A stretch of 64,000 nucleotides of DNA from Terriglobia bacterium (GTDB taxonomy: Bacteria > Acidobacteriota > Terriglobia > 20CM-2-55-15), in assembly GCA_965198225.1 (NCBI GenBank), contig CBDAOY010000007.1, positions 990,045 through 1,054,044 on the forward strand, written 5' to 3'. Positions 3,377-60,734 of this stretch are shown here, piece after piece. Both the position numbers and the translations under genes were made by a program. Numbering within the stretch: the stretch's first letter is position 1; every line of letters starts with the position of its first letter. The notes below the pieces were generated by a model that saw nothing but the letters and a program-made list of their open reading frames with translations, had not been told where the DNA came from and did not search any database.

Positions 3377-3402
3377 CTATCGCTGCCCGGGAATCGTGGA
3401 TT

Positions 3403-40390: not shown

Positions 40391-40422
40391 AAAATAGGGA
40401 CAGACTCCTGTGTCCCTATTTT
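40391..40422. promoter_or_regulatory. Perfect 12-8-12 palindrome AAAATAGGGACA-N8-TGTCCCTATTTT in divergent promoter region upstream of the transferase pair
   Basis: Perfect inverted repeat ~30 bp upstream of candidate GT start. Confidence 0.45.
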
Positions 40423-40448
40423 ATCGGCAACATTTTGAACCACTTAAA

Positions 40449-41150
40449 ATGCCGGCTATGAAGATCTCTGTCATCATCCCAGCCTACAACGAAGCGGACC
40501 AGATCGGGCTGACACTGGACGCCGTCCACGCCGCAGGCCTTGATGACGTTCTGGTGGTCGACGGCGGCAGTGCCGACGAAACGGTTCTGCACGCACAGGC
40601 CGCCCGGGTGACGACGATGGAGGGTCCCCGGGGAAGGGCGAGCCAGATGAACGCCGGCGCGCGAGTCAGCAGCGGGGAGGTCCTGCTGTTTCTCCACGCC
40701 GACACGCGCCTGCCGCCGGACGCGGGCCGGCTTGTCGAGAACGCCCTCGCGGACGATCGCGTCCTCGGTGGTGCCTTCCACCTGCGATTCGACTCCGGCG
40801 GCTGGCTCATGCGTCTGGTGAGCTTCCAGACCAACGTGCGTTCCTACATTCTCGCCCCCTGGGGGGATCAAGCTCTTTTCGTCCGCCGCACCTTCTTCCT
40901 CGAAACCGAAGGCTACCGGCAATGGCGCTTGATGGAGGACGTCGAAATGGCTCATCGCATCAAGAAGAACGGACGATTCACAATGATCCGGACCCCGGTG
41001 GTGACTTCCGGTCGACGATTTCGCGAGCAAGGCTTCATCCGAAACGGAGTCCGCAACCAGATGCTGATGGCGGCATACTATGCAGGCATTGCGCCGGACC
41101 GCCTGGCTCGATTCTATTCCTATGACCGGCGAACAAGAGAGGAACGCTGA
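40449..41150 (+). CDS. Family-2 glycosyltransferase, TIGR04283-like (arsenosugar/rSAM-selenodomain-associated transferase 2)
   Basis: MKISVIIPAYNE...DGGSAD...; partnered with DUF2064 gene; ORF-track start 40410. Confidence 0.75.
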   Translation: MPAMKISVIIPAYNEADQIGLTLDAVHAAGLDDVLVVDGGSADETVLHAQAARVTTMEGPRGRASQMNAGARVSSGEVLLFLHADTRLPPDAGRLVENALADDRVLGGAFHLRFDSGGWLMRLVSFQTNVRSYILAPWGDQALFVRRTFFLETEGYRQWRLMEDVEMAHRIKKNGRFTMIRTPVVTSGRRFREQGFIRNGVRNQMLMAAYYAGIAPDRLARFYSYDRRTREER

Positions 41151-41830
41151 TGAAGGCGCCGCTGGCGACCTCGCTTGTCATCATGGCCAAGGCGCCACGT
41201 GCCGGCCGCACGAAAACGCGCCTGTTTCCCGCTTTGACCCCTGATGAAGCCGCCGGTTTGTATCGGTCGATGTTGCTGGACACGATCGAGCGGCTCCGTT
41301 CGCTGTCCGGGTTCGAGCTCTGGCTGGCATTCACGCCGGAGGACGAACGGGCCTGGTTCGAGACGAACATCGATCCGCCGATCCCGTTGATGCCTCAGCG
41401 GGGCGACGATCTGGGCCAGCGTATGCACCACATCGTCGAAGACAGGTGCTCCGATGGAGCTGAAGCTGTGCTGCTCGTCGGAACCGACCTGCCCACGCTT
41501 CCCGCCGACTATGTGCGTCAGGCGGCGGATTTACTGCACGAGGACGACAGGGTCGTCCTCGGCCCGACCGAAGACGGGGGCTACTACCTGATCGGATTGT
41601 GCGAGCCGGACATCCGTCTGTTCGAACGAATCGAATGGAGCACGGATTCGGTCTTCCAGCAGACCGTCTGTCAGGCCGAGGCGGCAGGAAAGTCCGTCTC
41701 GACGGTTCCGTCCTGGTTCGACATCGACGAGCCTGCCGACCTCGAACGTCTCCGGAGCGCGCTCGAACACAGCGACGAGCAAACCCATCCCCCGCACACC
41801 GCGAACTTTCTGGCGTGTCTCGGAGGCTAG
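41150..41830 (+). CDS. DUF2064 / TIGR04282-like transferase (arsenosugar-associated transferase 1)
   Basis: VIMAKAPRAGRTKTRL N-terminal hallmark; start overlaps upstream stop. Confidence 0.75.
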   Translation: MKAPLATSLVIMAKAPRAGRTKTRLFPALTPDEAAGLYRSMLLDTIERLRSLSGFELWLAFTPEDERAWFETNIDPPIPLMPQRGDDLGQRMHHIVEDRCSDGAEAVLLVGTDLPTLPADYVRQAADLLHEDDRVVLGPTEDGGYYLIGLCEPDIRLFERIEWSTDSVFQQTVCQAEAAGKSVSTVPSWFDIDEPADLERLRSALEHSDEQTHPPHTANFLACLGG

Positions 41831-41869: not shown

Positions 41870-42514
41870 TCACTCCTCCGCTCCCGAATCTCCTTCAGTT
41901 GCGTCCTCCGTGAACTCCGCCAGCGAACGTCGCGCCATCTGTGTCAGCAGCACGGCGACGATCACGGTAGCACCGAGCCCGAACCAATAGAGGACGGTTT
42001 CTCCGGTCGTGGCCTCGCGTTGACCCGACAACATTTCCGCAATGTTGAAAGCGACGGACCCGATGTAGACGTACATCGCGGTGGCAGGGAACATTCCCAG
42101 AAAAGACGCCAATACATAGTCACGCAGGCGGACCCGCGTCAGGCCCAGCGAATAGTTCAGGAAGACGAAAGGAAAGACGGGCGACAGGCGGAGGAGTGTG
42201 ATCAGCTTGAATCCCGATTCTTCCGCGGCCTGGTTCAGCCGGTCGAGGAACGGCTGATTGCGGATCCGCCGCTCTATCCGGTGGCGGAACGCGGTACGAA
42301 CGAGTAGAAACGCGATCGTCGCGGCCAGGACGCTCACGGGAGAAACCAGAGCCGTTCCGAGAATCGGCCCGTATATGAATCCGGCGATCAGCGTCATCGC
42401 AGAGCCTGGAATCAGGGCGATGGTTGCAACTACGTATATAAGTGCGAAAGCGAGGGGACCGATCCAGCCCAGACCCCGGATCGTTTCGACAGCGATTATG
42501 ATCCAGTCGTCCAT
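41870..42514 (-). CDS. TVP38/TMEM64 (DedA/VTT-domain) membrane protein
   Basis: Start MDDWIIIAVETIRGLGWIG; VTT-domain TM pattern; ORF-track upstream extension unlikely. Confidence 0.7.
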   Translation of the reverse strand: MDDWIIIAVETIRGLGWIGPLAFALIYVVATIALIPGSAMTLIAGFIYGPILGTALVSPVSVLAATIAFLLVRTAFRHRIERRIRNQPFLDRLNQAAEESGFKLITLLRLSPVFPFVFLNYSLGLTRVRLRDYVLASFLGMFPATAMYVYIGSVAFNIAEMLSGQREATTGETVLYWFGLGATVIVAVLLTQMARRSLAEFTEDATEGDSGAEE

Positions 42515-42623
42515 GAGTAAGTGGCCACCAGGCCATATCGCGCATGGCTTGCGCACGAACTCGACGTGGGCCATCGGCGTGAAGAAAGCGCCCGGCTCCA
42601 CAAATGTCGCCGGGTGCGGCCTA

Positions 42624-45077
42624 TCAGCAGCACTCGCCGGGTTCGCAACACTCAACGCTGGACAGCGCCGCGTCAGCATCCTTGGCCATCACCAGGAAAG
42701 ATCCCGCGTAAGGCTCTCGCGACAGTTTCGCAGCGGTATCGGTGCACACCTGGACGGGTTCGTTTCGGGGAAAGAGGTGGCCTTCCTCGTCGACGACCGC
42801 CTTCAGCGGGCCCAGATAGACGGCGCGCTGGCCTTCGAAGTTGCACACTCCGTTCTTCCCGAACTTGAAGCCCTGGATGATCAGCGAGTAGAAACGGTAG
42901 CCTTCGATCTCTTTCCAGAAGGTTTTCTCGACGAGCGACAGGCCGTAGAAACCCACCTGCTCGAGCATGGCGAAGTATTCATCTTCGGTCAGTGCTCCCG
43001 AGACGCACTCTCCCCACAGCCGGGGGTTGGCTTTCATGTGGTGGGGAATCTTCGATTCGGACACCGTGTCGGAGATGATCGCGCGGCCGTGATTCTTCAG
43101 AACCCGCCACATCTGCGAAAGTACGCGGCGTTTATCGGGCGAAAGGTTGATCACGCAGTTGGACGTCACGATATCGGCCTTCTGATCCTCCAGCGGAAGC
43201 TGTTCGAGGTATCCGCGCCGGAATTCGACGACGTCGTACCCGAGGGATTCGGCGACGATGCCCCGATTCCGTTCGGCCCGCTCGATCATTTCCGTCGTCA
43301 TGTCGATGCCGATCACACGACCGCTGGACCCGACGCGCTGTGCCGCGATAAAGCAGTCGATACCGCCTCCCGAACCGAGATCGACGTATGTTTCGCCCGG
43401 CTTGATGTCGGCGAACCGAATCGGGCTGCCGCAGCCGTAGGACACCTCGACGACTTCCTTCGGCAGTGCCCGAAGCTCGGCGGGGTCGTAGGCGGTCGGA
43501 CAGCACAGCGCTTCCTGAGGCTCGACGGCCGCCTGGGCGTAGAACTGGCGGACTTTCTCACGCGATCGTTCCAAGTCGACGGAGAGGACGCACGTGGAAC
43601 GGGATGTGGCGATCTCGAACCCCTCCGCTTCAATGGTTTCCATCTCAGAAAGCGATTCACCCATCGCGGCCACGACGGTCGGGGAATCGTATCCGGATGG
43701 GCCCTCATGGCTCTTGTTCTCAGAGGCGATCTGCTCGATCGCTCGGAGCAGCAGCCATTCGTGAACCTTCGAAAACGGGTCTTTTCCAAGGACGGTGCCG
43801 GAGTAGAAGAATGAATGTTCGACGTCACCGCCGCCGCACACGTAGCGCAGGTAGCATTCCTGACAGTCTTCTTTCGCGATGACGCTGGCTCGGCGCAGCG
43901 CGCGCGCGCGCGCGGATGTTTTCCAGATTTCCGCCAGCGGCTGTTCCTCGACGTTGCCCATAAGCAGTTCGGGGACACCGGCCAGCGCCGCGGAAGGATA
44001 GACGGTGCCGTCCGCGTAGACGCAGCAGCTGCTCGTGGCCGCGACCGACAGGTCCATCTTGACCCCGCGTCGGCCCTGAGCCCTTTCCCGGGCGACCTCG
44101 TAGTTGTCGAGCTCGATTCCCTTCGAAGATGCGTTTTCCAGGTATCGTTCCAGCATCTCGATGATGTCGGCGGTGAACGGACTCTGCATCTGGTCGTCTT
44201 CCAGAGCCCTGCCCTGTTTGTGGTCCCACAGCAGGTGATGACGCCGGACGCCGAGTTTGTCCAGGAACTCCGGGAATCGAGGAAGCGTGTCGAGGTTCGA
44301 GCGAGTCACGACAGTGGACACGGTCGGTTCAAACGCGGCGTCCAGCAGGGCGCCGATGCCTTCGACGGTTCGCTCGAACCCGGATCCGCGGATCGCGTGG
44401 TGGGTCTCGCGGTCGGGTCCGTCGATGCTGACCTGTAGGGCCACGTTGCCGTTCGCGGCGGCTTTGAGATTGGCCAGGGTATCGCCCCGGAAGAACATGG
44501 CGTTGGTCAGGATGACGAGTTCGCTGTCGGTGCAGATGGCCCGAACGATGTCGATCAGGTCGCGCCGTAAGAACGGCTCTCCACCGGTGATGTAAAATTG
44601 CCGAACACCCATCTGTTTCGCGTCGTCGACGATCTTCAGCCATCGATCAGTTGGAAGTCCCTCGATCCCTTTCGGGGAAGAATCCACGAGGCAGTGGGCG
44701 CAAGTCAGGTTGCAGCGGTTCGTCAGGTGCAGCCACATCTCTTGCGGCTCGTGGCGCTCGATCAACGCCCCGCGACCCGGATAGGTCGGGTGCTGGAACG
44801 GCTCGCTTCTCAGGAAGTCGGTCCGCAGTGCATGGTTGAGCAGCGTGCTGACGTCGAGCCAGGCTTCGGCCCAGTCCTTGCCCGCGTGGGACCGGTAGCG
44901 GCCCACAAGGTCCGAGACCCTCCGCTGTCCGTCGATCCAGCCGAGTATTTCGACGCCCGCTCGGTTCGTCACGATCCAGTTTGGCGCCTCGGGGTCGAAC
45001 ATCAGTCCGAATTCTCCGATCAGCCGCTCTTCGTAACGTGGGGGCGCGTGAAGTACCTGTTCAGGCAAGATAGTCAT
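42624..45077 (-). CDS. Three-domain fusion: PqqD/RRE-like N-term + radical SAM/SPASM (ArsS-like) + ArsM/AS3MT-type arsenite SAM-methyltransferase
   Basis: 817 aa; CNLTCAHC radical SAM cluster; SPASM Cys motifs; YGCGSP, VDLGSGGGIDCF, SNCVINLSPDK, LWGECVSGAL, C-terminal CCEPGECC. Confidence 0.8.
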   Translation of the reverse strand: MTILPEQVLHAPPRYEERLIGEFGLMFDPEAPNWIVTNRAGVEILGWIDGQRRVSDLVGRYRSHAGKDWAEAWLDVSTLLNHALRTDFLRSEPFQHPTYPGRGALIERHEPQEMWLHLTNRCNLTCAHCLVDSSPKGIEGLPTDRWLKIVDDAKQMGVRQFYITGGEPFLRRDLIDIVRAICTDSELVILTNAMFFRGDTLANLKAAANGNVALQVSIDGPDRETHHAIRGSGFERTVEGIGALLDAAFEPTVSTVVTRSNLDTLPRFPEFLDKLGVRRHHLLWDHKQGRALEDDQMQSPFTADIIEMLERYLENASSKGIELDNYEVARERAQGRRGVKMDLSVAATSSCCVYADGTVYPSAALAGVPELLMGNVEEQPLAEIWKTSARARALRRASVIAKEDCQECYLRYVCGGGDVEHSFFYSGTVLGKDPFSKVHEWLLLRAIEQIASENKSHEGPSGYDSPTVVAAMGESLSEMETIEAEGFEIATSRSTCVLSVDLERSREKVRQFYAQAAVEPQEALCCPTAYDPAELRALPKEVVEVSYGCGSPIRFADIKPGETYVDLGSGGGIDCFIAAQRVGSSGRVIGIDMTTEMIERAERNRGIVAESLGYDVVEFRRGYLEQLPLEDQKADIVTSNCVINLSPDKRRVLSQMWRVLKNHGRAIISDTVSESKIPHHMKANPRLWGECVSGALTEDEYFAMLEQVGFYGLSLVEKTFWKEIEGYRFYSLIIQGFKFGKNGVCNFEGQRAVYLGPLKAVVDEEGHLFPRNEPVQVCTDTAAKLSREPYAGSFLVMAKDADAALSSVECCEPGECC

Positions 45078-45254
45078 GGGGTGTCTCCTGATTCAATGCG
45101 AAGGGCAAGTTCTCCGAACGAATCATTTGATCGACTTTTCTTCAGCCGATATTGTAAGCGAAGTCACCGAGATGGGAAGGGTAGCGTGGATGTCAAAGAC
45201 GAGAGAGGTGAGGGGCGCCGGCAGACGATGACGCGACCTGCCGGCGTCTGCGCC

Positions 45255-45915
45255 TTATCCCGGGCGTCGACGCATCTCTTCCCGGGTGATGAATCCATCA
45301 TCGTCCGCGTCGAGGCGGTCGAAGGCCTCAGTCGGTCGGGTCCACTCGTCACGAGAAACCTTGCCGTCGCCGTCTTCATCCATCTGGAGCATCGCGGCTC
45401 CCCGGCCACGTCCGCCTCTGCCCGGGCGGGAGTTCTGCATCTCTTCGAGAGTGATGAAGCCGTCGCCATCGGCGTCCATGGTCTCGAACATCTGCGCGGG
45501 ACCCGGAAACTCCTGCTGCGACACGCGTCCATCGCCATCGCTGTCGAGCCCCTGGAAACGGGCTTGAGGGTCTGCGCCTCTTCCGCCTCTATCCCGGGCG
45601 TCGCCATCTCTTCCCGAATCCATCATCGTCCGCGTCGAGGCGGTCGAAGGCCTCAGTCGGTCGGGTCCACTCGTCACGAGAAACCTTGCCGTCGCCGTCT
45701 TCATCCATCTGGAGCATCGCGGCTCCCCGGCCACGTCCGCCTCTGCCCGGGCGGGAGTTCTGCATCTCTTCGAGAGTGATGAAGCCGTCGCCATCGGCGT
45801 CCATGGTCTCGAACATCTGCGCGGGACCCGGAAACTCCTGCTGCGACACGCGTCCATCGCCATCGCTGTCGAGCCCCTGGAAACGGGCTTGAGGGTCTGC
45901 GCCTCTTCCGCCTCT
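45255..45915. repeat. Tandem duplication (334 bp + ~327 bp, near-identical) of the 3' end (including stop) of the EF-hand selenoprotein gene; upstream copy carries 7-nt + 2-nt deletions
   Basis: 45255-45588 vs 45589-45915 align almost perfectly; both end CCCGGGATA(A/G). Confidence 0.8.
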
Positions 45916-46746
45916 GCCGCGGCCGCCCCCGAATTGCCGCTGGATTTCGTCACGAGCGAGGAGACCATCATCGTTTCGATCGAGCCGGTCGAACGTCTCG
46001 CCGTCGCCCGTCCACTCTTCCCGTGAGATTGTACCGTCCTCGTTCGTGTCCATGACGCCCATACCGCCCGCAGTCCCGGGCCTCTGCCCCGGCCGAGGGC
46101 GCATACCACGCATGCCGCGGCCGCGACGCTGTCCCTGTTCCTGTCCGTAGGCGGTGATCTCCCCTCTGAGAGCGACCTCGAGCGCTGCCCTGGCTTCGGG
46201 GACATCGAACCCGGCCGGCCCGGGGCGTCCCTTGAAGGCGATGGTGCCGTCGGAGCCCACGACATAGATCCGGTCGGGAAACGCGGCGTACGCATTCGCC
46301 GTCCGGTCGTCGATCTTGTCCAGAATGGTCGGCATCGAGATGTCCAAGGCGGTCGTACAGATGTTGGCTGCTTCCTGGCGCTGCTCGTCGGTTTTGGCTT
46401 GTTCGATCAGGATGCCGTCGATAACATTCGCCGCTCCGAGGTTGCCGTCGGTGGGATGCGCTTCTCGAATGTAGACGAAGAAGAAATTGGCGCGGTCCTT
46501 GTAAGCCTGGTACCAGTTTTCGATGTCCACGACATCGCGGCGGAACGGGCCTCAGGTATAGCTGGCGAAGATCAGCGCGGTCGGTCTGCCCGTCATCTCA
46601 GAAAGCGTAATCTTTTGCTTTCCGTCTTTTGTACTGAGCGTGAAATCAGGCGCCGTATCTCCAGGCGTGGGGCCGCCGCCTCGCCGCTGGGCCGTGGCAG
46701 GGCTCACCAGGACGAGGACCAATAACGCAGACGCGAATGTTCTCAT
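45589..46746 (-). CDS. Candidate selenoprotein: secreted deiodinase-like thioredoxin-fold domain (FASYT-U-GPF, VYIREAHPTDG) fused to six EF-hand Ca-binding motifs; in-frame TGA (Sec) at 46552-46554
   Basis: ORFs 46552..46788 and 45589..46530 are in the same frame separated only by TGA; hairpin CGATGTC-GTG-GACATCG 16 nt after TGA (bSECIS-like); GGAGGAG RBS before ATG 46746; deiodinase motif AHP.DG downstream. Confidence 0.6.
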
Positions 46747-46845
46747 GGGTTTACTCCTCCGTCGACTATAGACAGGGCGGAGCGGCACGGGTTTAAGAGC
46801 GTTTTCAAATCGAATGAGGACCGCGTCCAGCGGTACGAGCTAGCT

Positions 46846-46965
46846 TCAGCCCCCTCCGCCAAGGAGGAAGCCTCCTGCGGCGCCGCGCGCTGTTCCCGAC
46901 GCCAGGTCTCCCAGGAGCAGACCGCCTATTGCGCCGACAACGGCAAACACCGCGATCGTGCCCAT
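46846..46965 (-). CDS. Possible small Gly-zipper membrane peptide (39 aa)
   Basis: MGTIAVFAVVGAIGGLLLGDLASGTARGAAGGFLLGGGG; weak RBS. Confidence 0.25.
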   Translation of the reverse strand: MGTIAVFAVVGAIGGLLLGDLASGTARGAAGGFLLGGGG

Positions 46966-47152
46966 CTTGGCTGCTGCGGACTTCTTAGCGCAGCTTTGTT
47001 CTTCGTTCTCTGTCACGAAAGAGCCTCAGTTTCCCCGTTCAGTCGATGATACCGGTGTTGTAACGGGATTTCTTCAAAAAAGCCGGGGTCTGCCGGGGCG
47101 TCGCCCGGATGCGGTAACATTAGGCTGACTTGAGTGTGATGGAGGCAGGTTC

Positions 47153-47431
47153 ATGAAAGCAATATGGCAGGGCGCGGTCTTGGCCGAAAGCGAAGATACC
47201 ATCGTCGTGGAAGGGAACCACTACTTCCCACCGGAGTCGACCGACACCTCCCACTTTCGGCAGAGCCGGACCCACACGGTCTGCCCGTGGAAAGGACAGG
47301 CCAGCTACTACGACATCGTCGTCGACGGCGACACCAATAAGGACGCCGCCTGGTTCTACCCCGAGACGAAGGAAGCCGCCGACCAGATTCGCGGTTATGT
47401 CGCGTTCTGGCACGGAGTCGAAATCACCTAA
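47153..47431 (+). CDS. DUF427-domain protein
   Basis: 92 aa; NHYFP, C.WKG.A.YY, GYVAFW; GGAGG RBS; terminator hairpin GGGGGCAGAGCCCCC downstream. Confidence 0.7.
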   Translation: MKAIWQGAVLAESEDTIVVEGNHYFPPESTDTSHFRQSRTHTVCPWKGQASYYDIVVDGDTNKDAAWFYPETKEAADQIRGYVAFWHGVEIT

Positions 47432-47558: not shown

Positions 47559-47864
47559 ATGCCTCGAAACTACATGACATATCCGTCCGGTCTGGTCCTG
47601 CAGGCAATCGCTTCGGGGCATCGGTATGGTTTCGATGTGATGGATGTGACGGGATTGCCGAGTGGTACGGTTTACCCGGCACTTCGGAAGCTGGAACGAG
47701 AGGGCTATGTCCGTTCCAGGTGGGAAGGCGAAGATGTGGCCCGCCAGGCAGGGCGTCCACCGCGGCGTTACTACGAGGTTAGCGGCCCTGGCTCGGCGGC
47801 CTTGACCCAGCTGCTGAAACGGTTTCCAGGACTGGCCCGGGCCCTTGCCGCGGAGGTCTTGTGA
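47559..47864 (+). CDS. PadR-family transcriptional regulator
   Basis: 101 aa; wHTH PadR signature Y.....G...YP.L..LE..G. Confidence 0.85.
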   Translation: MPRNYMTYPSGLVLQAIASGHRYGFDVMDVTGLPSGTVYPALRKLEREGYVRSRWEGEDVARQAGRPPRRYYEVSGPGSAALTQLLKRFPGLARALAAEVL

Positions 47865-48475
47865 GGTGGGCAGGCGGCGAGCGGTCTCTCCGCGTCTGCC
47901 TGTTGTGGATTCGCGCTCTGTCGTTCCTCGTCCCGCCCCCGGGCCGGGACGAATGGATGCGGGAGTGGCGTGGCGAGCTTCTGCATCACTGGAGTGAGTT
48001 CGAGACAGGAGTTCAAAAGTCCCGTGCTGCAAGATTCGATTTGTTCCTACATTCGATGGGCGCCTTGCCTGATGCACTGTGTCTGCTGCGTCAGGAGTGG
48101 AGACTGGACATGCTGATGCAGGATCTGACCTATGCGGTACGGACGCTCGGCGCTCGACCGGGCTTCACCTTCGTAGTGATTTTCATTCTGGCGCTGGGTA
48201 TCGGGGCCAACACCGTCGTGTTCAGCGTCGTCGATGCCGTCCTGTTTCGACCCCTACCGTTTCCCGAGCCGGAGAGGCTGGTTGCGATCTGGGACGAAAA
48301 CACCCAAAAGTCGATGCTTCGTCAGGGTCCGGCGCCCGGCAATCTGCTGGACTGGCGTGACCAGTCACGGGTGTTCGATGGTATCGGAGCCTGGTACGCG
48401 GGCGAGCCCAGGACTGTGCGCGACGAGTCCAGTGCGGAGAAAGTGTCCGCCACTATAGGATTTTATTATGTCTAA
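47861..48475 (+). pseudogene. ADOP/MacB-like FtsX permease, N-terminal 204 aa only, truncated by insertion of integrative element
   Basis: Permease-prefix domain then first TM (FTFVVIFILALGIGANTVVFSV) and start of periplasmic domain; reading frame runs into AT-rich foreign DNA at ~48457 and stops. Confidence 0.7.
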
Positions 48476-48516
48476 TAATATCCATAAGTCTTATTTATAT
48501 CAACAGTATATCGTCC

Positions 48517-48544
48517 TAGACAATCCAGCGCCGTCTGGTATAAT
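48517..48544 (+). promoter_or_regulatory. Integrase promoter: -35 TAGACA, 16-bp spacer, extended -10 TGgTATAAT
   Basis: Canonical spacing, ~70 bp upstream of int ATG. Confidence 0.5.
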
Positions 48545-48613
48545 CCAAGCCTGTTGGGGGATATATTGGGGGAGTGCTGGAGTGCCTCTGCCCCATCGGT
48601 CGAGGGCTCTGCA

Positions 48614-49792
48614 ATGGCCATTCACAAACTCTCCCAACGCAAGGTAGACACCGCCGGTCCCGGCAAATACGAAGACGGCGGCGGGCTCCGCTTGGTGGTG
48701 TCCAATTCAGGCGCCAGGAGATGGGTCCTGCGTTACACCGTCCACGGCAAACGCCGGGAAATGGGTCTGGGCCGTTATCCCGATGTCGGGTTGGCCGATG
48801 CCCGCACGCAAGCGCTACGGCACCGGAGGCAGTTGGCGACGGGCGTAGATCCCATCGCAGCCCGCCGGGCGGCCCCGGAGACGCTACCCACCTTCACCAT
48901 CTGCGCCGCCCGGTATATCCGGGCCCATCGACGGAGTTGGCACAATGCCAAGCACGCGCGGCAATGGGTCCGGAGCCTGAAGACCTATGCCCGGCCCGTC
49001 ATCGGGGCCAAACGGGTCGACGCCATTGAGACTGAAGACATTGTAAAGATACTCTCTTCGATCTGGAACACCAAGACCGAAACGGCCAAGCGCGTGCAGG
49101 GGCGCATCGAAAATGTCCTGGACTTCGCCGCCGCGCACCAATACTGCGGTCCCCTGAACCCGGCCCGCTGGCGGGGCCATCTGGACAAGTTGCTCCCGAA
49201 GCCCTCCCGGGTGAAGCAAGTCACCCACCACCCGGCCATGCCGTATCCCGAGGTGGCGGACTTCCTGCAGGAGCTGTCCGGACACCGGAGTGTATCGGCG
49301 CAGGCGCTGCGGTTTTTGATCCTGACCGCCACGCGCACCAGTGAAGTCTTAGAGGCGCAGTGGCCGGAAATCGATCGGACCGCCGGTATATGGATCCTTC
49401 CCGCCTCCCGGATGAAAGCCCGACGGGAACATCGAGTTCCCTTATCGGATGCGACCCTGGCGGTTCTGGAAGACCTACCCCGCATGGCAGGCCACCCGTA
49501 TGTCTTCGCCGGATCTCGCCACGGACGCCCTCTGTCGAACATGGCCCTACTGAAATTGATGCGAGACATGGGATATTGCGTTGAGGGTTCCCGGGCTCAC
49601 TACGTGCCGCATGGATTTCGCTCCAGTTTTCGGGATTGGTCCGGCGAGGTGTCGAGCTTCCCGCGAGAAGTTGCGGAAATGGCCTTGGCCCACGTGGTGG
49701 AGAACAAGGTGGAAGCGGCCTACCGGCGGGGGGATCTGTTCGCCAAACGGCGCAGCATGATGCAGGCCTGGGCCGACTACCTCAAGAAGTAG
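48614..49792 (+). CDS. int: Tyrosine integrase, P4-type (DUF4102 arm-binding N-domain + catalytic domain)
   Basis: MAIHKLSQRKVDTAGPGKYEDGGGLRLVV...; catalytic R..H..R..Y region (HGFRSSFRDW, conserved Y near C-term). Confidence 0.9.
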   Translation: MAIHKLSQRKVDTAGPGKYEDGGGLRLVVSNSGARRWVLRYTVHGKRREMGLGRYPDVGLADARTQALRHRRQLATGVDPIAARRAAPETLPTFTICAARYIRAHRRSWHNAKHARQWVRSLKTYARPVIGAKRVDAIETEDIVKILSSIWNTKTETAKRVQGRIENVLDFAAAHQYCGPLNPARWRGHLDKLLPKPSRVKQVTHHPAMPYPEVADFLQELSGHRSVSAQALRFLILTATRTSEVLEAQWPEIDRTAGIWILPASRMKARREHRVPLSDATLAVLEDLPRMAGHPYVFAGSRHGRPLSNMALLKLMRDMGYCVEGSRAHYVPHGFRSSFRDWSGEVSSFPREVAEMALAHVVENKVEAAYRRGDLFAKRRSMMQAWADYLKK

Positions 49793-50066
49793 AAGGGCGG
49801 GTGCGCAAGGTCGACGGGCGGCCAACAATTCATGCATTCCGATGATTCCTTGAAGGAGCCCACTGCTTCCGAGGTGTGAAAGAATTCAGGCTGGTGCGGA
49901 TTCGACGCGGAAGTGGTCGGCGGAGTGAAAGGAGATGCGACAGAATCTGAGGATCTACGATTCCCGACCGAACCCCAGTGGGGCTAGTGTAGGCCGTCAC
50001 CAAAGGGCACCGCGGACTCGGTCGATGTGACTTTGATCAGGGAAAATCATGGACGGAACGGGTCCC

Positions 50067-50708
50067 TCAATGGATCGTCGGCTTCTCCACGCCGATGGTG
50101 GACAGTGCGTGTTGGCGGGCTCGCGTGCAGGCAACCACAACGGCATGAAGCTCTTTCTCCGCGATCCGTGAGAGTTCCCGCACGTTCTTGAGGCTCCGCG
50201 CCAGATCCATCTCCGAGCGCGACGATGTTCTCTCCAGACACTCCACCATGCTGTGCATCATGGCGTTGATCTCCCCGAGATTGTCCATGGCTTCGTGAGC
50301 CCGTTCGGGGAGATCCAGCACCTCCTCGGCACCGAACAGGCCGTCGATGAAACCTTCCAGCTCTTCCATGCGGGTGCGGCAGAGGCGACTCAGATCATCG
50401 AGCTCCGCCTTGGCGGCCATCGGTGTCAAACGGAACGGCCGGGTTCCCGATTGATGCTTTGCCAATTCGTTCCAGAGGCCCATGAGAGCCTCAAACAGCT
50501 CGTTGGCGGCAGCGACATCGTCAAACTTCGGCAGTTCTCCTCCCCAGAAAGCTGCTACGGTCGGGAGGGGCGACGCATCAAGATTGGGACTGGCGATGTT
50601 GCCGAGGAAGCGTGTGCGCACGACATGGAATGGAGTCGGACAGGCATAACCGTCCAATAGCCCGCGGACTCGTTCGTCGCCCTGATATCTGTGGGAACGT
50701 TTCTTCAT
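50067..50708 (-). CDS. Hypothetical protein (213 aa)
   Basis: ORF with reasonable composition; no recognised domain. Confidence 0.45.
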   Translation of the reverse strand: MKKRSHRYQGDERVRGLLDGYACPTPFHVVRTRFLGNIASPNLDASPLPTVAAFWGGELPKFDDVAAANELFEALMGLWNELAKHQSGTRPFRLTPMAAKAELDDLSRLCRTRMEELEGFIDGLFGAEEVLDLPERAHEAMDNLGEINAMMHSMVECLERTSSRSEMDLARSLKNVRELSRIAEKELHAVVVACTRARQHALSTIGVEKPTIH

Positions 50709-50795
50709 GCCCGATTAACTTCCGGCCGGCGTTGTGCCATTTCACCTTGTCCCTGCGGAAGCAGATTAGTCCGAAGAAGTTCGAGAATTTCCCGT

Positions 50796-51380
50796 TTACG
50801 TCCCACAGTTCTGGTAGTCCGAGGCCATACACGTGCGCGCCCACTCAATGGCGCGGCTGATCTGGGCACGGGTCATTTCACGTTCAAGGTTGCCCCGCGA
50901 CTCCTCGGGCCCAACGCCGGCGACGCTGACCCTCCCATTGGCGCTGGCGATATTGAACCACATGTGCGCGAGCACGTCGTCCTCGATGCCGCCCAAGCCG
51001 TTGTAGTACATCAACCCGAGGTTGAACTGCGCGCTCGCGTGCCCCTGCTCGGCCGCCATGCGGTACCATCGCGCCGCTTCCGCATCGTCTTCGATGACAC
51101 CCTCGCCGTGGGCATACATGGTTCCGAGATTGAATTGCGCACGCGCGTCCCCCTGCTCGGCCGCTATGCGGAACCACCGCATTGCTTCACGGTCATCCTC
51201 CATGGCGGCCTCGTCATCGTCGTAGGTGCTCCCGAGGCTGTCCGGCGTATCCGCGTTCCCCTGCTCGTCTTCGGCCTGAAAGCGTCCTGGTTCGTCCTGC
51301 GCCGGAACACATGCCGCGGCCAGCAGCCAGGAGCCGCAGAGCAGTGTCATCGCGATCCATCGGTTACGGTGTTTCTTCAC
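50796..51380 (-). CDS. Sel1-repeat (TPR-like) secreted protein
   Basis: Signal peptide; repeated A.AQFNLG.MY..G.GV..D...A..W motifs. Confidence 0.8.
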   Translation of the reverse strand: MKKHRNRWIAMTLLCGSWLLAAACVPAQDEPGRFQAEDEQGNADTPDSLGSTYDDDEAAMEDDREAMRWFRIAAEQGDARAQFNLGTMYAHGEGVIEDDAEAARWYRMAAEQGHASAQFNLGLMYYNGLGGIEDDVLAHMWFNIASANGRVSVAGVGPEESRGNLEREMTRAQISRAIEWARTCMASDYQNCGT

Positions 51381-51620
51381 GGCAGCCTCCCATGTCCTGG
51401 TGATCTTATGCCTTGAGACTGGATCGTCGATTGTAGGCGATCCAGGACGCGACCCTACAAGTACTTGGCGACTCTAGTGTAATGGGATCCGCAGGTTACG
51501 TTGCGTGCCGAACACGGATCACCGCTGGAGTGTGGACACAGCGGAAGGTTCACCGTGCCGACGGACGGGTAAGCCAGCCACCTTGAGCAGGATCATCTTG
51601 GGACGCCATCGGCGGCACAC

Positions 51621-51951
51621 CTAACGTCGGCGGCCGCAGGACACGAATATCTCCACGTCGGCCCTCAGCGCGCGCTCCGTGTTGTGGCTGAAGGCACCCC
51701 GGGCCGCTTTGAAGTAGGCGGCCAGTTGGTCCCCTGCCTCCGCAGCGTATTCAACACGGAACGAGAGCGTTCTCGAGCGGGTTGGTCTGCCCGATCGCCT
51801 TGTGCAGCGTGGCGATGCTGGAGACGTAGCGGCGCACCGTCGCCGGGGCCTTGACGCGCGCCATGTCGTCGATGAAGGCGACCAGGGTGGGGGCGTTGGC
51901 GGGCAACGCCGGCACGACCTGCTGCCGGCAGCCAGGATCTCCATCTCGCAT
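51621..51951 (-). pseudogene. Tyrosine recombinase N-terminal (SAM-like core-binding) fragments, frameshifted remnant
   Basis: VAFIDDMARVKAPATVRRYVSSIATLH in one frame and FSHNTERALRADVEIFVSCG in the other; no catalytic domain. Confidence 0.45.
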
Positions 51952-52008
51952 GTCATCTCTGAAATCAGCATCGGGCGGCCTCCGGTTCAGTCGAAAAAGG
52001 CCGCGAAT

Positions 52009-52042
52009 TTTACTCGCGATAATTCCAGTTATCGCGAGTAAA
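52009..52042. promoter_or_regulatory. Perfect 14-6-14 palindrome TTTACTCGCGATAA-TTCCAG-TTATCGCGAGTAAA (recombinase core-site-like)
   Basis: Perfect arms, 6-bp spacer, ~60 bp from the recombinase fragment. Confidence 0.5.
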
Positions 52043-52611
52043 GCCCCGAGATAACGCTTTCCTCGCCGTTGATCACACGGCGCGGCGGATTTTTTTCGAT
52101 CCGGCGCCTGCTGCCCATCAGCTCAGGGGGGGCGGGACGCAACGAGGTCTGTCTACCGAACGGGGGAGTTGTGGTGCCTTCTACGGCCCGAATGAGCGCG
52201 ACCAGATATCGCCAGCGAACCGGAGAAAGGGACATCGACTTGGCAGAACACCGTGAAATCGCGGCGTCACGCGTCACAGGGATAGACACGAAAGCGGTGG
52301 CGAAGGACTGAGGTGGCCGTATCGATACGGTCGTGGCGGCGCGCTCACCCGCAGCCGTGGCTGCGCCGATGATTTGTCCATGGGGCGATCCGCCGCGTGA
52401 CCGCAAGCCGCTGGCGATGAGTGCCTGCCCGGTTCACGGAAATCGGGCTATGGGCTCTGCCGTGCAGCGCCGCCCGCCTGTTCCGTGCCGAGCCCGTTGG
52501 CAGGACATGAGCAGTTTCGCCGCCGATACCGTCGATCAACGTGCGACCGTCATCACCGGTCCCCGGGTGTCGGTCCGCGGACGTCAATTCACAAGGGCGA
52601 CGCGCTACCGC

Positions 52612-55600
52612 ATGCGCGTGCTCTCTTTTTCGCTGCAAGGCCTTAAAACCGGGTTATTTCTGCTATTCGCATCACTGCTGGCCGTGTCGGCGCCGATTCA
52701 GGCCAGCGCGCAGGCGAACAGCCCTCCGGCGGTGACGGGGCCAACCAGCGTCGACTACGCCGAGAACAGCGAGGAGACGGTGGCCACGTATATCGCTACG
52801 GACCCGGAGGCCGAAGCAATCGCGTGGAGCGTGTCCGGGACGGACCATGCGCTGTTTTCCATCACTGCGGGTGTCCTGGAGTTCCTGAGCCCGCCGAACT
52901 ACGAGAGGCCTATCGACGAGGGCGAAGACAACGCGTATGAGGTGGGCGTCACGGCCACGGATTCCTCCGGGGCGGCCGCCACCGTTGCGGTCACCGTGAC
53001 GGTAACAGACGTCAACGACCCGAACATCGTCCTCATCATGGCGGACGATGTCGGTTATGAGGCCTTTGGGGCATACGGTAGCGCACAGTACAGAACGCCG
53101 CGAATTGATGAGCTTGCAGCCGCGGGAGTTCGCTTCACGAACGCTTACTCAAACCCGGTATGCACCCCGAGCAGAGTTGCCTTGATGACGGGTAAGAGCA
53201 GTGTCAGGAACTATGTGGATTTCGGAGTTCTACTCCCCGGAGAATACACGATTACTGATCTCTTTAGTGGGGCCGGATACGCAACGGCCATCGCCGGAAA
53301 GTGGCAGCTTCACGGTAGTGTCGTAGGTAGTGACGTAGTGGCTGGTGTCCCTGCCGGAACCGGATTCGACACGTATTCCTTGTGGAATACAGCCAACACG
53401 GGTCGTAGTCGCTACTGGAATCCTTCCATCGAACGCGACGGTGAAATCATCGATCTGGGCAGCGAGGATTACGGGCCCGACATATTCACGAATTTCCTGC
53501 TGGAATTCATAGAGTCCAACAGAGATAAACCGTTTTTCGCCTACTACCCGATGGTGCTTCCTCATGATCCGTTCGGCTCGCCGCCGCAAGCCCAATGCGT
53601 CGATACCGCTGACGGACAGTGCAATTTCGAGGACATGGTCGCGTATCTCGATTACAACGTCGGCCGCATACGCGACAAGCTGGCGGACCTGGAGCTACTC
53701 GACAACACAATCCTCATATTCACCTCCGACAACGGAACTCACGCACGCTGATCTGATTTCAGAACTCGGGGGAGAAATGATCCATGGGGATAAGAACATG
53801 CCCAACAATGGCGGCACGCGGGTACCGCTGATAGTCAGCGTTCCAGGAGGTGAGGGGGGACGGGTGTTCGACGACCTGATCGACTTCACCGACTTTCTCC
53901 CGACTCTGGCTGATGCGGCAGGTCTTACGATTCCTGACGTCAATATGCTGGACGGCGTGAGTTTTTGGGACAGGCTTCAAGGCCGAACCGGCCAACCGCG
54001 GGAATGGATATATACCTATTACTTCCCACGTCCGTTCGCCGATAGGTTCGACAATCCGCAACGTCATCCAGAGGCGTCGTATGTCCGAGACAAGCGGTAC
54101 CAGCTCTACGGAACAGGAGAGTTCTTCGACATTTCCGTAGACCCTCACCAAGTGCATCCGTTGCCGAGTGACGATGAAGAGTCCAGCGCCGCCCGTACCA
54201 AGCTGCAAGCGGTTCTCGACTCGATGCCGGGGAGAGGTGAGGAGATTTACCCATATTTGATAGGAACTGTCCCGGACTCTGAGCCGCGCCCGCGATGGCG
54301 GCCCGTCCTGTCGAAAGCAACTGTGAACGGCGGCCAATTGACGCTCACTTACGCCGGAATTCTGGACTCAAGAGAAGCGCCTCCCGCAGATTCCTTCATT
54401 GTGAACGTTGATGGTTCCGAGCGTGCGGTCTCCACAGTTTCGATAAGCAAAACAGCGGTTACGCTTACACTCGCTTCGGCGGTTACAGTTGGCCAGACGG
54501 TGACGTTGAATTACACGCCGGGAACGAATGCGATTCAGCACGCGAACAGGCCATTCGGGCACAAAGCGGCACCCCTGGTTCGCCAAGGGGTGACGAACAA
54601 CACTGTGGACACGACGGCGCCGGCGGTGTTGTCGATCACGAGCGACGCGACGCACCCGACGAAGAACGCTTTCACGGTGACGATAACCTTTTCGGAGGAG
54701 GTGAGGGGACTCACGGCGGGGGAGATCGCGGTCACCAATGGCACGGGCTCGAACTTTGCGGGCACAGGCGCGAGCTACATGCTCGACATCGAACCCAGCG
54801 ACGATATCGAAGCCGACGTGACGGTCCGGGTTCCGGCCGATGCGGCGATGGACGCCGCGAACCTCGGCAACATCGAGGGGATCGAGACCTTCGCGGTGGA
54901 CACCCAGGCGCCGGCGGTGTTGTCGATCACGAGCGACGCGACACACCCGACGAAGGATGCTTTCAGGGTGACGATCACCTTTTCGGAGGCGGTGACGGAG
55001 CTCACGTCGCAGGATATCGCGGTCATGAACGGAGTGGGCTCGAACTTCGCGGGCACGGACGCGCGCTACACGCTCGACATCGAGCCCAGCGCCAATACCG
55101 AAGACGATGTGACGGTCCGGGTTCGGGCCAACGCGGCGGTGGACGGCGTGAACATCGGCAACGTCGAGGGGATCGAAACCTTTGCGGTGGACACCCAGGT
55201 GCCGAGGGTGTTGTCGATCACAAGCGACGCGGCGCACCCGACGAAGGATACTTTCACGGTAACGATCACCTTTTCGGAAGAGGTGACGGGGCTGACGGCG
55301 AGTGAGATCGTGGTCAGCAATGGCCGTGGCTCGAACTTCGCGGGCACGGGCGCACGCTACACGCTCGACATCGCTCCGAACGCCAACCTTGAAGCCGATG
55401 TGACGGTCCGGGTTCGAGCCAACGCGGCGGTGGACGGCGCGAACAACAGCCACGTCGACGAGGGCGAGACCTTCGCTGTGGACACGCGGGCACCGGTGTT
55501 GATGAGCGCTGCGGTGGATGGCGACACGCTGACGCTGAGCTATGGGGAGGCGCTGGGCAACCCGACACCGGAGCCGGGCGATTTCACGATGAATGTGGAG

Positions 55601-58600
55601 AGCGCTGGGCGGAGCGTTTCCAGGGTGGCGGTGAGCGGAAGAGCGGTGACTTTGACGCTTGCCTCGGCCGTGGCGCATGGCGAGACGGTGAGAGTGAGCT
55701 ACAGCCCGGGGACGAACCCGATCCAGGACGCGGTGGGCAACCAGGCTCTGGGACTGAGCAACGCGTCGGCCACCAACACTACGGATGCACCCAACACGGA
55801 TCCGATGATCACGAGTCCGGGGCCGTTCAATGTCACTGAGAATCAAGCGCGGGTGACCCGGCTGATGGCGGCCGACGCCGACCCGGGGGACGAGGTCACC
55901 GGCTATACGCTTGTCGGCGGAGCCGATCGGGCCCAGTTCACGGTCGGTGAGGATACCGGAGATCTGGGCTTCCGGGCGGTTCCGAACTTTGAAGCGCCCA
56001 CGGATGCCTTCAGTAACGATCCGCCAAGTGGGGCAGGAGACAACGAGTACATCGTGGTGGTCCAGGTCAGCAGCGGGGCAGGAACGCGGGTGCGGACGGC
56101 GGAACAGACGATTCGCGTGCGGGTGAGTGACGTGGAGGAGCTTCCAGCGGCGCCGGAGGAGCCGACTTTTCCGAGGGCGACGCCGGACAGCCTGACGGTG
56201 GCGTGGACGGAGCCGGACAACACCGGGCCGCCCATCACCGGCTATGACGTGCAATACCGGGAAGGCGTCAGCGGCGGCTTCACGGATGCGCCGCACTCCG
56301 GGACGGCCCAAACCACAACGCTCATGGGGTTGAGCGAGGGCACGGCCTACCAGGTGCAGGTGCGGGCGAGGAACGCGGAAGGAACAGGTGACTGGTCGGA
56401 GCCGGGCGAAGGACGGACCGTGGCCCCGCTGAGGGTTCGGATGACGCCGGAGCTGGAGCCGCCGGTGGAGGGCCCGTTCTCGGTGAGGTTCAGCTTTTCG
56501 GAGACGGTGACGGGTTTCAGCGGAAGCGACATCGAGACGGGTCAGGACCTTGCCTGCATGGACGATCAGAACAACCCGGTGTTCTGCAACCCCGGCTTTG
56601 CGGCATTCGAGACCACGGATAGCCGGGTCTTCACCACCCGCGTGACCCCGAGGACCGGCGGGGTGGCCAATAACTACAAGCTCACGCTCACGGTGCGTGC
56701 CGGCGGAGTGAGATCGTCTGTCGGCAATAAGCCTAACGAGGAGGCGACGCTTGAGGTGCCGGTGGCGCCGCCGGGGGTGACGGTGCCGATCGGGCCGCTG
56801 GGGCTGACGGCGAGCGGGGGAAACGGCCAGGTGGCGCTCCGGTGGAATGCCCCGGGGGACACCGGGGGCGCCGCGATGGTCCGCTACGAATACCGGGTGG
56901 CGGATGGCGTCGGCGGGGAGTTCGGCGCCTGGATGCGGGTGGATGCGGCGGCGAGGTCCGCGCCGGTCCCCGATCTGACGAACGGCCGGGAATACGTCTT
57001 CGAGCTGAGGGGGGTGAACGCCCTGGGCTACGGCGGGGTGGAGACCGTGCGAGCCACCCCGGTGCGCACCACCACCGGGGACGGAGGAGGCAGAGGAGGC
57101 GGCGGGGGTGGGGGCGCCCTCCGCGGGACAGTGCCGGGCGCGCCGACGAACCTGACGGCTGAGGGCGGGGACGGCCAGGTCGTACTGAGTTGGGACGCCC
57201 CGGAAAGCGACGGCGGGGCGGCGATCACCGATTACGAGTATTGGAACGGCGGGAGTCGGACCTGGACCTCCATCGGTTCCACGAACACCACCCATACGGT
57301 CACCGGCCTCGACAACGGAACGGAATACACCTTCCAGGTGCGGGCGGTCAACCGAAGGGGCCGGAGCCGGGCTTCCAACCGGGCTACGGCGACGCCGGAC
57401 GTGTTTATCCTGGACTTTGCGCATTTCGCCAATGGCGCGTCCATTACCTCCGATCTGGTGCTGGTGAACCCGGGAAGCATCCCGATCCGGCCCGTCGTTT
57501 ATTTCTACGACACCGGGGGCAATCCAATTAACGCCGAATCGGTGGTGGACGTCACCGGTGATCTGACGGTCGCCGAGGACGGTGCCTTGACGGTCCTGGC
57601 GGATATGGAGCCACTCAGAGAACTCACGATTGCGACCCACGGTCGGGGAGCGCTCGTGAGTGGATCGGTGAAGGTTGTCTCTTACGGTCCTGTCGGCGGG
57701 TTCCTGCGCTATAACGTCCCGGATGTCGGCGTGGCCGGTGTGGGAGCGAGCCCGCCCACACGGGATGTCCTTTTCCCGGCCCGCCGCGAGGCGGGAGGCA
57801 TCAATACGGCGGCGGCGATCCAGAACCTGGGAGAGGCACCGCTGGAGGTGAGCTGCCGATTGATGCGCGCGGGCGCGGTGCTGGAAGAGGCGGAGATCGC
57901 TCTTGCGCCCAACGGGCAGTCGAGTGTCTTTATCGACGAACAATTCCCCGCCACCGATACGTCCGACTTCGCGGGGTCGATGCACTGCGACGCCCCAGCG
58001 ACGTTCACCGGTGTGGCGGTCGAGATGGATGCTGTCCACCGCATCTTTACGGCACTGCCGGTGGTTTCCGCGGATCGGCTCAGCGGCGGCAGTGCGACGG
58101 TCCTGGACTTTGCGCATTTCGCCAATGGAGGTTCCATCACCTCCGATCTGGTGTTCGTGAATCTGAAGACCCGTCCGAGCGGGCCCGCGCCCACTCCCTT
58201 TCAGATGGCCATCCCTCCGAGCCGCCCTGCCATCCATTTCTACGACACGGAGGGCAATCCGATGGCGACCGAATCGGTGGTGGACATCACCGGCGATCTG
58301 GAAGTCACCGAAGACGGCGCCCTGACGGTCCGGACGGAGATGGAGCCCTTGGGCGTGCTCACGATTTCGACTCACAGCCGGGGCGATCTGGTGACCGGAT
58401 CGGTGAAGGTGGTCTCGGAGGGTCCCATCGGCGGGATGCTCCGCTTTGACCTCCCCGGCATCGGCGAGGCCGTGGTGGGGGCCAGCGAGCCCCTCAGCGA
58501 CTTCCTCTTCCCGGTGCGCCGCCAGGAGGGAGGCATCAACACGGGGGTCGCGATCCACAACCTGGAATCGAGTCCGGAGTTGGTGCGCTGCGAACTGCTG

Positions 58601-58837
58601 CGCGAGGGCGTGCTGCTCGATACCGTGAGCATCCCTCTTGAGGCCAACGGGCAGACCTCCGGGTTCATCGACGGGCGATTCCCCAGCGTCGATACGTCCG
58701 ACTTCGTGGGGTTGGTACGCTGCAATGCAGTCGGTGAGGGGCTCTTCAGTGCCGTCGCCCTGGAACTGGATGCCGCCAACCGCATCTTTACCACACTGCC
58801 AGTGATCCCGCTGCAAGAGACGATGTCTCAGGAATAG
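52612..58837 (+). CDS. Giant secreted multidomain protein: signal peptide, cadherin-like, arylsulfatase (CTPSR FGly motif), SwmB repeat, 3x tandem Ig-like, cadherin-like, 3x Fn3, two ~230-aa C-terminal repeats; one frameshift near 53745
   Basis: Sulfatase frame ends FTSDNGTHAR* at 53751 while +1 frame continues ADLISELGGEMIHGDKNMPNNGGTRVPLIVSVPGG (sulfatase C-half) into the 1757-aa ORF 53564..58837. Confidence 0.65.
54605..55477 (+). repeat. Three tandem 291-bp coding repeats (97-aa Ig-like units VDTTAPAVLSITSDATHPTK..), high nucleotide identity
   Basis: GTGGAC register at 54605, 54896, 55187, 55478. Confidence 0.8.
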
Positions 58838-59125
58838 ACGGACGCGCCTGACAGGCTAGGCGACGGCGTCGCCATGAGCTTCGAACCGGGCGTCGACGCC
58901 CAACGCGGGAGAGCCCGAGTCAGGGGGGCACGGACCACGGCATGCCTGGACGGTTCACGGCGCGCCGGCGGTAGACATCCGATCCGTGGACACCGTGGGC
59001 CGGGGGCGCCCCCGGATGCATACCGGAGGCCGGCGGGGGTCCATCATGCCTGGGATGACTGTGATGTCGATGTTGCCGTGCTCGGTCGCGTGCCTCGTCG
59101 CAGCCGGCATCCGCGGTGTTGCGGA

Positions 59126-59803: not shown

Positions 59804-59804
59804 A

Positions 59805-60722: not shown

Positions 60723-60734
60723 CCCGGTACGCCG

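Follow-up and report, generated by a model that had tools for sequence, protein, structure and literature searches.

The DNA studied here is a 64-kb stretch (the window, by which we mean the whole of the DNA analysed) from a soil Terriglobia bacterium (Acidobacteriota), and our subject is a candidate selenoprotein gene of the deiodinase-like (Dio-like) family on its minus strand. Two minus-strand open reading frames (ORFs), 46552..46788 and 45589..46530, share one frame on translation and are separated only by the TGA at 46552-46554, the sole intervening stop, as an original prediction made from the sequence of the window had stated. When this TGA is read as selenocysteine (Sec), the two ORFs become one coding sequence (CDS), for which ATG 46746 is the likely start codon; GGAGGAG lies 7 nt before this ATG, and the CDS as assembled stops at TAG 45589-45591 (Table 1). 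The translation contains both ALIFASYT-U-GPF and VYIREAHPTDG, and a Gly/Arg-rich linker lies between the VYIREAHPTDG segment and a series of EF-hand loops. Cys130 is the only Cys of the whole protein and is kept in most relatives. An N-terminal signal sequence, MRTFASALLVLVLVSPATA followed by Q, was recognised by eye, and the comparable N-termini found at six loci of the comparison set described below (L003-L008) and in most family members lend support to the signal peptide that had been proposed.

The case for a selenoprotein draws on a Cys column in the homologues, a conserved TGA, a covarying hairpin specific to the Sec-type genes and structure matches to the deiodinases Dio3 and Dio2. On this evidence the reading first offered for the locus is upheld, and we consider it very probable that the locus is a genuine selenoprotein gene of the deiodinase-like family.

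Table 1. Features of the candidate selenoprotein gene and of the genes downstream of it (window coordinates)
Feature	Position	Strand	Remarks
Full CDS as assembled	45589..46746	-	385 residues, Sec at residue 65; replaces two entries of the ORF track
Signal peptide, predicted, Sec-type (export), MRTFASALLVLVLVSPATAQ	46687..46746	-	By inspection; probable cleavage after ATA
PF00837 deiodinase-like thioredoxin/peroxiredoxin-fold domain	46177..46668	-	Residues 27-190
UGA, presumed Sec codon	46552..46554	-	Residue 65, motif S-Y-T-U-G-P-F; TGA/Cys column
bSECIS-type hairpin CGAUGUC-GUG-GACAUCG	46521..46537	-	5' arm 46531-46537, loop GUG 46528-46530, 3' arm 46521-46527
C-terminal EF-hand region	45601..46050	-	Six 12-residue loops in three pairs; Gly/Arg-rich linkers
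EF-hand loops 1-6	46015-46050, 45946-45981, 45835-45870, 45766-45801, 45670-45705, 45601-45636	-	Sixth truncated
Perfect tandem duplication of the gene's 3' part	45291..45915	-	Tandem Repeats Finder: period 325 bp, 1.9 copies, 100% identical
Radical S-adenosylmethionine (SAM)/SPASM + ArsM-like methyltransferase fusion, 817 aa	42624-45077	-	Downstream of the selenoprotein gene
VTT/DedA membrane protein	41870-42679	-	Follows the radical SAM fusion
TIGR04282 (DUF2064) 'arsenosugar biosynthesis' glycosyltransferase	41150-41830	+	195.6 bits, cutoff 134
TIGR04283 'arsenosugar biosynthesis' glycosyltransferase	40410-41150	+	238.9 bits, cutoff 182

A selenocysteine/cysteine column in a deiodinase fold

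Relatives were collected by searching the deiodinase-like domain against 5.8 billion proteins, and a scan of genomes in which each species was represented once turned up relatives in at least 594. The best 80 loci plus two close contigs make up the comparison set of 82 loci and 88 gene copies, in which L001-L009 are the window's own clade (71-99% protein identity). At the position of the in-frame UGA the 88 copies have TGA in 54 cases, TGC in 31 and TGT in three, and no other codon occurs. On either side of the codon the peptide motifs are conserved in the same frame, which is open both before and after the TGA in the homologous loci as well. Sec-type genes account for more than half of the 80 best-matching loci and come from Terriglobia, Planctomycetota, Armatimonadota, Chloroflexota and Verrucomicrobiota. 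Whether homologues carry Cys or Sec in this column had been proposed as a check of the original prediction, and the answer is favourable to it: full-length relatives have Cys exactly at the Sec column, and the codons are confined to those listed above.

Most database relatives are C-terminal fragments of ~120 aa that start just past the Sec codon, which is the signature of mis-called selenoprotein genes. One public protein record, P0001 (from L083, a JGI contig, 132-890), has Trp at the Sec column. The underlying DNA is TGA, and the Trp is there because the gene caller applied the wrong genetic code to a short contig. The wrong code on this contig gives, by accident, a full-length protein record of a selenoprotein. 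Some loci hold more than one gene of the family: L081, from a Fimbriimonadia metagenome-assembled genome, has three tandem Sec-type Dio-like genes at about 3196-4612, each with its own TGA, and L036, L044 and L079 have two family genes each within the fetched locus, the pair in L036 consisting of one Sec-type and one Cys-type gene.

The Pfam profile T4_deiodinase (PF00837) matches the window protein over profile positions 74-234 of 237, with E 4.6e-24 and 85.5 bits (cutoff 27), and the best sequence matches among solved structures are mouse Dio3 (4TR3, E 1.7e-17) and Dio2 (9H48, E 1.1e-11). The aligned counterparts of ASYTUGPF and YIREAHPTDG in mouse Dio3 are GSCTCPPF and YIEEAHPSDG, and in the alignment with Dio3 and Dio2 the Sec, the Ser at -3, the Thr at -1 and the E-A-H-P segment coincide. 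The TGA aligns with the Sec-to-Cys active-site residue of Dio3, confirming that it occupies the redox-active position of the motif as had been claimed. For the fold we relied on an AlphaFold model of P0001, which is 78% identical to the window protein; its mean predicted local distance difference test (pLDDT) score is 83.5, with values mostly of 87-97 across the domain. The Sec position opens the first long helix after a beta strand in this model, which is the standard redox position. The top fold matches are again 4TR3 and 9H48, with template modelling (TM) scores of 0.76-0.78 normalised to the target, followed by proteins of the ResA/TlpA/DsbE type (TM 0.80-0.88 normalised to the target). 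Thus the profile match, the Dio3 alignment and the model agree with the earlier assignment to a deiodinase/thioredoxin-like family with VYIREAHPTDG as its hallmark. The stretch upstream of the UGA provides the first three strands of the thioredoxin fold in the model; the 64 residues before this codon thus belong to the fold and do not make up a separate small protein.

The downstream hairpin and the proposed decoding of the UGA

A hairpin of the bacterial selenocysteine insertion sequence (bSECIS) type follows the UGA within the reading frame, its stem starting 14 nt and its loop 21 nt after the codon. The 7-bp stem and GUG loop are as originally described, and the distance of 16 nt given with them is actually 14 nt. 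The bSECIS model (PMC13188914) calls for a loop of 3-9 nt, an upper stem of 4-16 bp, G at loop positions 1 and 2 (as a rule G[G/U]N), a UGA-to-loop distance of 16-37 nt and a minimum free energy of -7.5 kcal/mol or lower. The window hairpin fits these constraints with its 3-nt GUG loop, 7-bp stem and 21-nt spacing, and its energy is -8.5 kcal/mol when 4-5 flanking nt are included. Viewed in isolation the hairpin is not very unusual. Even so, of the 1777 TGA triplets of the window only 23 (1.3%) have after them a perfect stem, 7 bp or longer, in keeping with the SECIS spacing and loop rules.

Across the family, the mean folding energy of the 33 nt downstream of the codon is -10.8 kcal/mol for the Sec-type genes (50 distinct sequences) and -6.7 kcal/mol for the Cys-type ones (34 sequences; p 9e-9). 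The Cys-type sequences in this comparison encode very similar peptides to the Sec-type ones, and the hairpin is weak or absent in Cys-type genes. Most of the family has its stem start 10 nt after the UGA, with a G[G/U]N loop. For this register covariation scores 0.285, shuffles give 0.152 (none of 500 attains 0.285), and slid registers score 0.122 or less; three of the stem pairs in the family alignment are each seen as GC, CG, AU and UA. The picture within the window's clade is one of constancy at the nucleotide level. All six stem codons are nucleotide-identical in L001-L009, all ten codons upstream of the UGA and the four between the UGA and the stem vary, and the loop codon is GUG, GGG, GGU or GGC, always G[G/U]N though the amino acid changes. 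Stem codons that are frozen amid drifting neighbours are the pattern predicted by selection on RNA structure. The distance to the loop also separates the Terriglobia EF-hand clade (21 nt after the UGA, L001-L009) from most other loci (17 nt, L010-L081).

Several observations count against the selenoprotein reading. The bare 17-nt hairpin comes to -7.2 kcal/mol, just short of the model's -7.5, and the 76-nt region folds no better than its shuffles (z -0.18). The stem is invariant in L001-L009, with no compensatory change within that clade, and the hairpin there is displaced 3' by 4 nt relative to most of the family; because 4 is not a multiple of three, it was rebuilt in the same coding stretch and not shifted by the insertion or deletion of a codon. 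Neither the 64-kb window nor the flanking DNA of 51 Sec-type loci contained selA, selB, selD or tRNA-Sec: ARAGORN and Rfam detected only tRNA-Ser(CGA) in the window, Pfam searches of ~40 window ORFs gave no SelA, SelB or SelD, and no tRNA was present in the 51 related loci. The Sec-decoding trait does occur in Acidobacteria (PMC1794560). In addition, the gene as assembled carries a 325-bp duplication that damages its last EF-hand, and a clustering of 640 flanking ORFs yielded no partner, conserved family-wide, that would point to a substrate, the recurrent neighbours being only Dio paralogues, an antisense-ORF artefact and planctomycete DUF1559-type proteins.

If the UGA is translated, it could in principle be read through as a residue other than Sec, by an opal-suppressor allo-tRNA or by near-cognate decoding as Trp, Cys or Gly. 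Acidobacterial allo-tRNAs are possible missense or nonsense suppressors (PMC5389517). We nevertheless regard read-through of this kind as very unlikely, as it leaves unexplained both the structured element found at a fixed distance in TGA-type genes only and the strict alternation of TGA and Cys at the catalytic position. TGA also terminates many well-supported genes of the window, and the family is TGA-type in phyla with documented complete Sec machinery, e.g., some Planctomycetes (PMC4807772). Still less credible is a true stop at the TGA, with a nonsense pseudogene or with a small secreted peptide and a 313-aa EF-hand protein started at GTG 46530: this would suit the public calls that split L001 and L002 into 64-aa and 316-aa ORFs (likewise P0002 and P0116) and the fact that no Sec machinery was seen in the window, but TGA stands at the exact codon in 54 gene copies across phyla with Cys as the sole alternative, peptide conservation extends to both sides in a single frame, the upstream part forms the first three strands of the fold and the codon starts the active-site helix, the GTG 46530 'start' coincides with the hairpin loop, and a nonsense pseudogene would not retain a covarying hairpin.

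Genome-wide reassignment of UGA was also considered and rejected because TGA ends many Pfam-supported genes in the window (25 of the 54 long ORFs end in TGA, many of them with Pfam support). A scan of the window for other same-frame ORF pairs split by TGA, filtered on GC content at third codon positions, was noisy and gave no convincing further candidate; the filter also missed the target gene.

Decoding as Sec has consequences for annotation. Public calls show L001 and L002 as a 64-aa ORF and a ~316-aa protein instead of one gene, and the few named database relatives carry 'hypothetical' or 'EF-hand' labels. Because the genes are split or begun past the codon, the active-site half and the selenocysteine are lost from annotation. 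Recognition of the gene adds a selenoprotein, predicted to be exported, to a soil Terriglobia genome. It adds no new category: how the UGA is decoded, the Sec/Cys logic and the family itself are all textbook in the field.

EF-hand tail and relation to known proteins

The Pfam profiles EF-hand_5, EF-hand_1, EF-hand_6 and EF-hand_7 all match the C-terminal region above their cutoffs (E 1e-20 to 1e-27). We took as canonical a loop with D at position 1, D/N at 3, D/N at 5, G at 6, a hydrophobic residue at 8 and E at 12, occurring in pairs. Five loops are canonical by this definition; the sixth (DADDDGFGKRWR) is cut after G6-F7 and its second half is gone. The six DxDxDG loops counted in the original prediction can therefore all be seen, with the qualification that the sixth lies at the junction of the duplication and lacks its second half. 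Lanmodulin-like EF-hands were rejected as an identity for the tail, the lanmodulin score being 47 bits against a cutoff of 135. A proline is typical of lanmodulin EF loops, and the window loops have no such proline.

The architecture had been thought unusual for Dio-like proteins. In fact the association with EF-hands is common in the family, and what is particular to the Terriglobia clade is their C-terminal placement, which was seen at nine loci, all nine of them from Terriglobia and all nine Sec-type. At the related loci, many proteins from planctomycetes that are 400-450 aa long have one to four EF-hand loops N-terminal to the Dio domain, and they include Sec as well as Cys forms. Their N-terminal region (loci L014-L080, e.g., L062, L054 and L047) is conserved over ~260 aa and corresponds to NF038285. 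Another N-terminal layout has four EF-hands (L021, P0016 and P0021). EF-hands are thus joined to Dio-like domains in at least three arrangements.

The NCBIfam family NF038285 ('deiodinase family protein', 347 positions, mainly Planctomycetota) resembles the window protein in its Dio-like domain with EF-hand loops, in being an exported protein and in its Sec and Cys forms. It differs in layout, with the EF-hand region N-terminal and the Dio domain C-terminal, the reverse of the window protein. Full-length scores against this profile are 496 bits for L062 and 404 bits for L054. The Dio domain of the window protein alone scores 192.6 bits (cutoff 250), and the full-length protein, queried with Cys for Sec and with the intact sixth EF-hand taken from duplicate copy 2, reaches 254.3 bits only as three stretches with the EF-hands out of order. 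We do not count the protein as a member of NF038285, its match being collinear only at profile positions 174-344. A literature search for EF-hands together with bacterial deiodinases returned no description of such a link, only a review of animal selenoproteins.

Zhang, Fomenko & Gladyshev described deiodinase-like proteins of bacteria (PF00837) as a selenoprotein family in 2005 and gave it Sec and Cys forms and a bacterial SECIS (PMC1088965), and a 2026 review still lists it as computationally defined (PMC13188914); no characterised bacterial member came up in either paper. Because the family dates from 2005, the window gene is not a new kind of gene. It adds to a selenoprotein family already known a further member whose domain order is specific to its clade. 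It shares with that family the Pfam assignment, Sec at the active site of a thioredoxin fold, Cys homologues and a SECIS directly after the UGA, and the function of the family is presumed to be redox. The family was reported from marine metagenomes, whereas this member comes from a soil Terriglobia bacterium and adds a signal peptide and three C-terminal EF-hand pairs. The family motif given in the review is UxxC (PMC13188914), while the window protein has T-U-G-P-F with no Cys at +3.

The vertebrate enzymes Dio1-3 share the S-x-T-U-x-P-F motif and the (Y/V)-I-x-E-A-H-P-x-D-G segment with the window protein, which is without their N-terminal membrane anchor. Their SECIS lies in the 3' untranslated region, in contrast to the bacterial in-frame SECIS found here. 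Cys168 of Dio3, next to Sec, is Tyr in the window protein, and the position of Dio3 Cys239 is not Cys either; the animal enzymes, for their part, have no EF-hand tail. We do not expect thyroid hormones to be substrates. Proteins of the ResA/TlpA/DsbE type are exported thioredoxin-fold proteins, as is predicted for the window protein, and match it weakly in sequence; they have a CxxC pair and are without the deiodinase-specific insertion (E-A-H-P-T-D-G onward), Sec and EF-hands. SELENON, an animal selenoprotein of the endoplasmic reticulum lumen, combines an EF-hand with a Sec redox motif and ties Ca2+ to redox (PMC10650576). It is not homologous: SELENON is a eukaryotic protein with only one EF-hand, and its SCUG motif is set in a thioredoxin-reductase-like context. 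It may serve as the closest functional analogy to the window protein, as an analogy only.

From the sequence and the comparison with relatives, we propose that the UGA at codon 65 would be decoded as selenocysteine during translation, with the hairpin 14 nt downstream acting as a bacterial SECIS that recruits SelB with Sec-tRNA(Sec) to the ribosome. The product would consist of a cleavable signal peptide, the deiodinase-like domain and a tail of three EF-hand pairs, and Sec would stand in the classic redox-active position, N-terminal in the first helix. We infer a periplasmic or extracellular selenol-based oxidoreductase. The selenolate of Sec65 may attack an oxidised or halogenated substrate, either Cys130, the sole and mostly conserved Cys, or a thiol from outside could resolve the selenenyl intermediate so formed, and Ca2+ on the EF-hands might stabilise or gate the enzyme outside the cytoplasm. 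The repeated joining of Dio-like domains and EF-hands in bacteria suggests a testable link between calcium and extracytoplasmic selenium redox. As a bolder extension, which we think rather unlikely to be right, EF-hand/Dio fusions could mark an as yet undescribed class of calcium-gated extracytoplasmic seleno/thiol enzymes that are SELENON-like in logic, with the Terriglobia enzyme recruited to an organoarsenic pathway or working as a Sec-based dehalogenase on natural organohalogens.

Duplicated 3' end, neighbouring genes and possible mobile elements

The 3' part of the gene is duplicated in tandem. Copy 1 gives the CDS a variant, shortened 3' end, GFGKRWRRPG followed by the stop, in which the second half of the sixth EF-hand is lost, and 7-nt and 2-nt deletions at this end jointly bring the frame back to the same ...RRPG-stop. 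Copy 2 (45255-45590), a remnant that is out of frame by one base, has an intact sixth EF-hand, the end GFITREEMRRRPG and the original stop TAA 45255-45257. Over ~1,500 aligned bases L001 and L002 differ from the window at only 2-3 positions, and both are without the extra 325 bp. The public proteins P0002 and P0117 keep the intact end ...DADDDGFITREEMRRRPG, while P0116, a public record on a 1.08-Mb contig, is the exact 313-aa product of the window. The duplication is either a recent real event or an assembly artefact.

Downstream, the neighbour described in the original prediction as an ArsS-ArsM fusion is indeed on the same strand and has an ArsM-like C-terminal half (241.8 bits against a cutoff of 263). 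Its N-terminal half is of the radical SAM/SPASM type and not ArsS: the best radical SAM matches are StsB, Rv1681, AhbD, NirJ2 and the mycofactocin maturase, a Pfam SPASM domain is present, and the ArsS model is absent among the 25 best of 91 NCBIfam matches of the fusion protein. Because the radical SAM half is SPASM-type, the chemistry may differ from known arsenosugar synthesis.

These neighbours raise the question of whether the selenoprotein works with the adjacent organoarsenic set, for example as a periplasmic Ca2+-dependent reductase acting on arsenic species. The Dio-EF-hand gene, the radical SAM-methyltransferase gene and the VTT gene follow one another in this order on one strand in L001-L006, even where protein identity is down to 73% and 79%, the TIGR04282 and TIGR04283 genes exceed their curated cutoffs, and Sec-containing arsenate reductases and arsenite methyltransferases are known (PMC13188914). 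However, synteny among close relatives is weak evidence, and the orthologues in L007-L009 (71-77% identical) have unrelated neighbours. An ArsM-like gene is found at none of the 73 other family loci (fetched flanks of up to 6 kb), no partner is conserved family-wide, and within the window the two genes are set apart by a 178-nt spacer with a strong hairpin and a promoter-like site. A role in arsenic metabolism seems to us unlikely on balance, and it concerns only what the protein does, leaving its reading as a selenoprotein as it was.

The spacer extends from the duplicated fragment to the gene of the 817-aa fusion. The GC-rich hairpin, GCCGGCAGG...CUGCCGGC, lies at 45205-45250 on the minus strand just after the original stop; it has no U-tract, and its region folds at -31.2 kcal/mol (z -2.78). 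Between this hairpin and the radical SAM-methyltransferase gene lies the promoter-like site (45151-45178).

Upstream of the selenoprotein gene there is a 56-aa Gly-rich hydrophobic ORF (46846-47016, minus strand), with no family match and no counterpart in the related loci, and a DUF427 gene (47153-47431, plus strand) that is kept beside the locus in L003-L006. Beyond these, the region 47861-63345 looks like an integrative conjugative element inserted beside the selenoprotein locus. There, the gene of an ADOP-family permease, which has a PadR regulator as its partner, breaks off after 204 codons at 48475, and a P4-type integrase (48554-49792) follows directly. Conjugation genes lie further on (TrbI at 58874-59803 and VirB8 at 61394-62404), and the region also contains a 1757-aa protein with Ig, FN3 and cadherin repeats (53564-58837). 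In L001, transposases and TrbL/VirB8 genes directly abut the selenoprotein gene.

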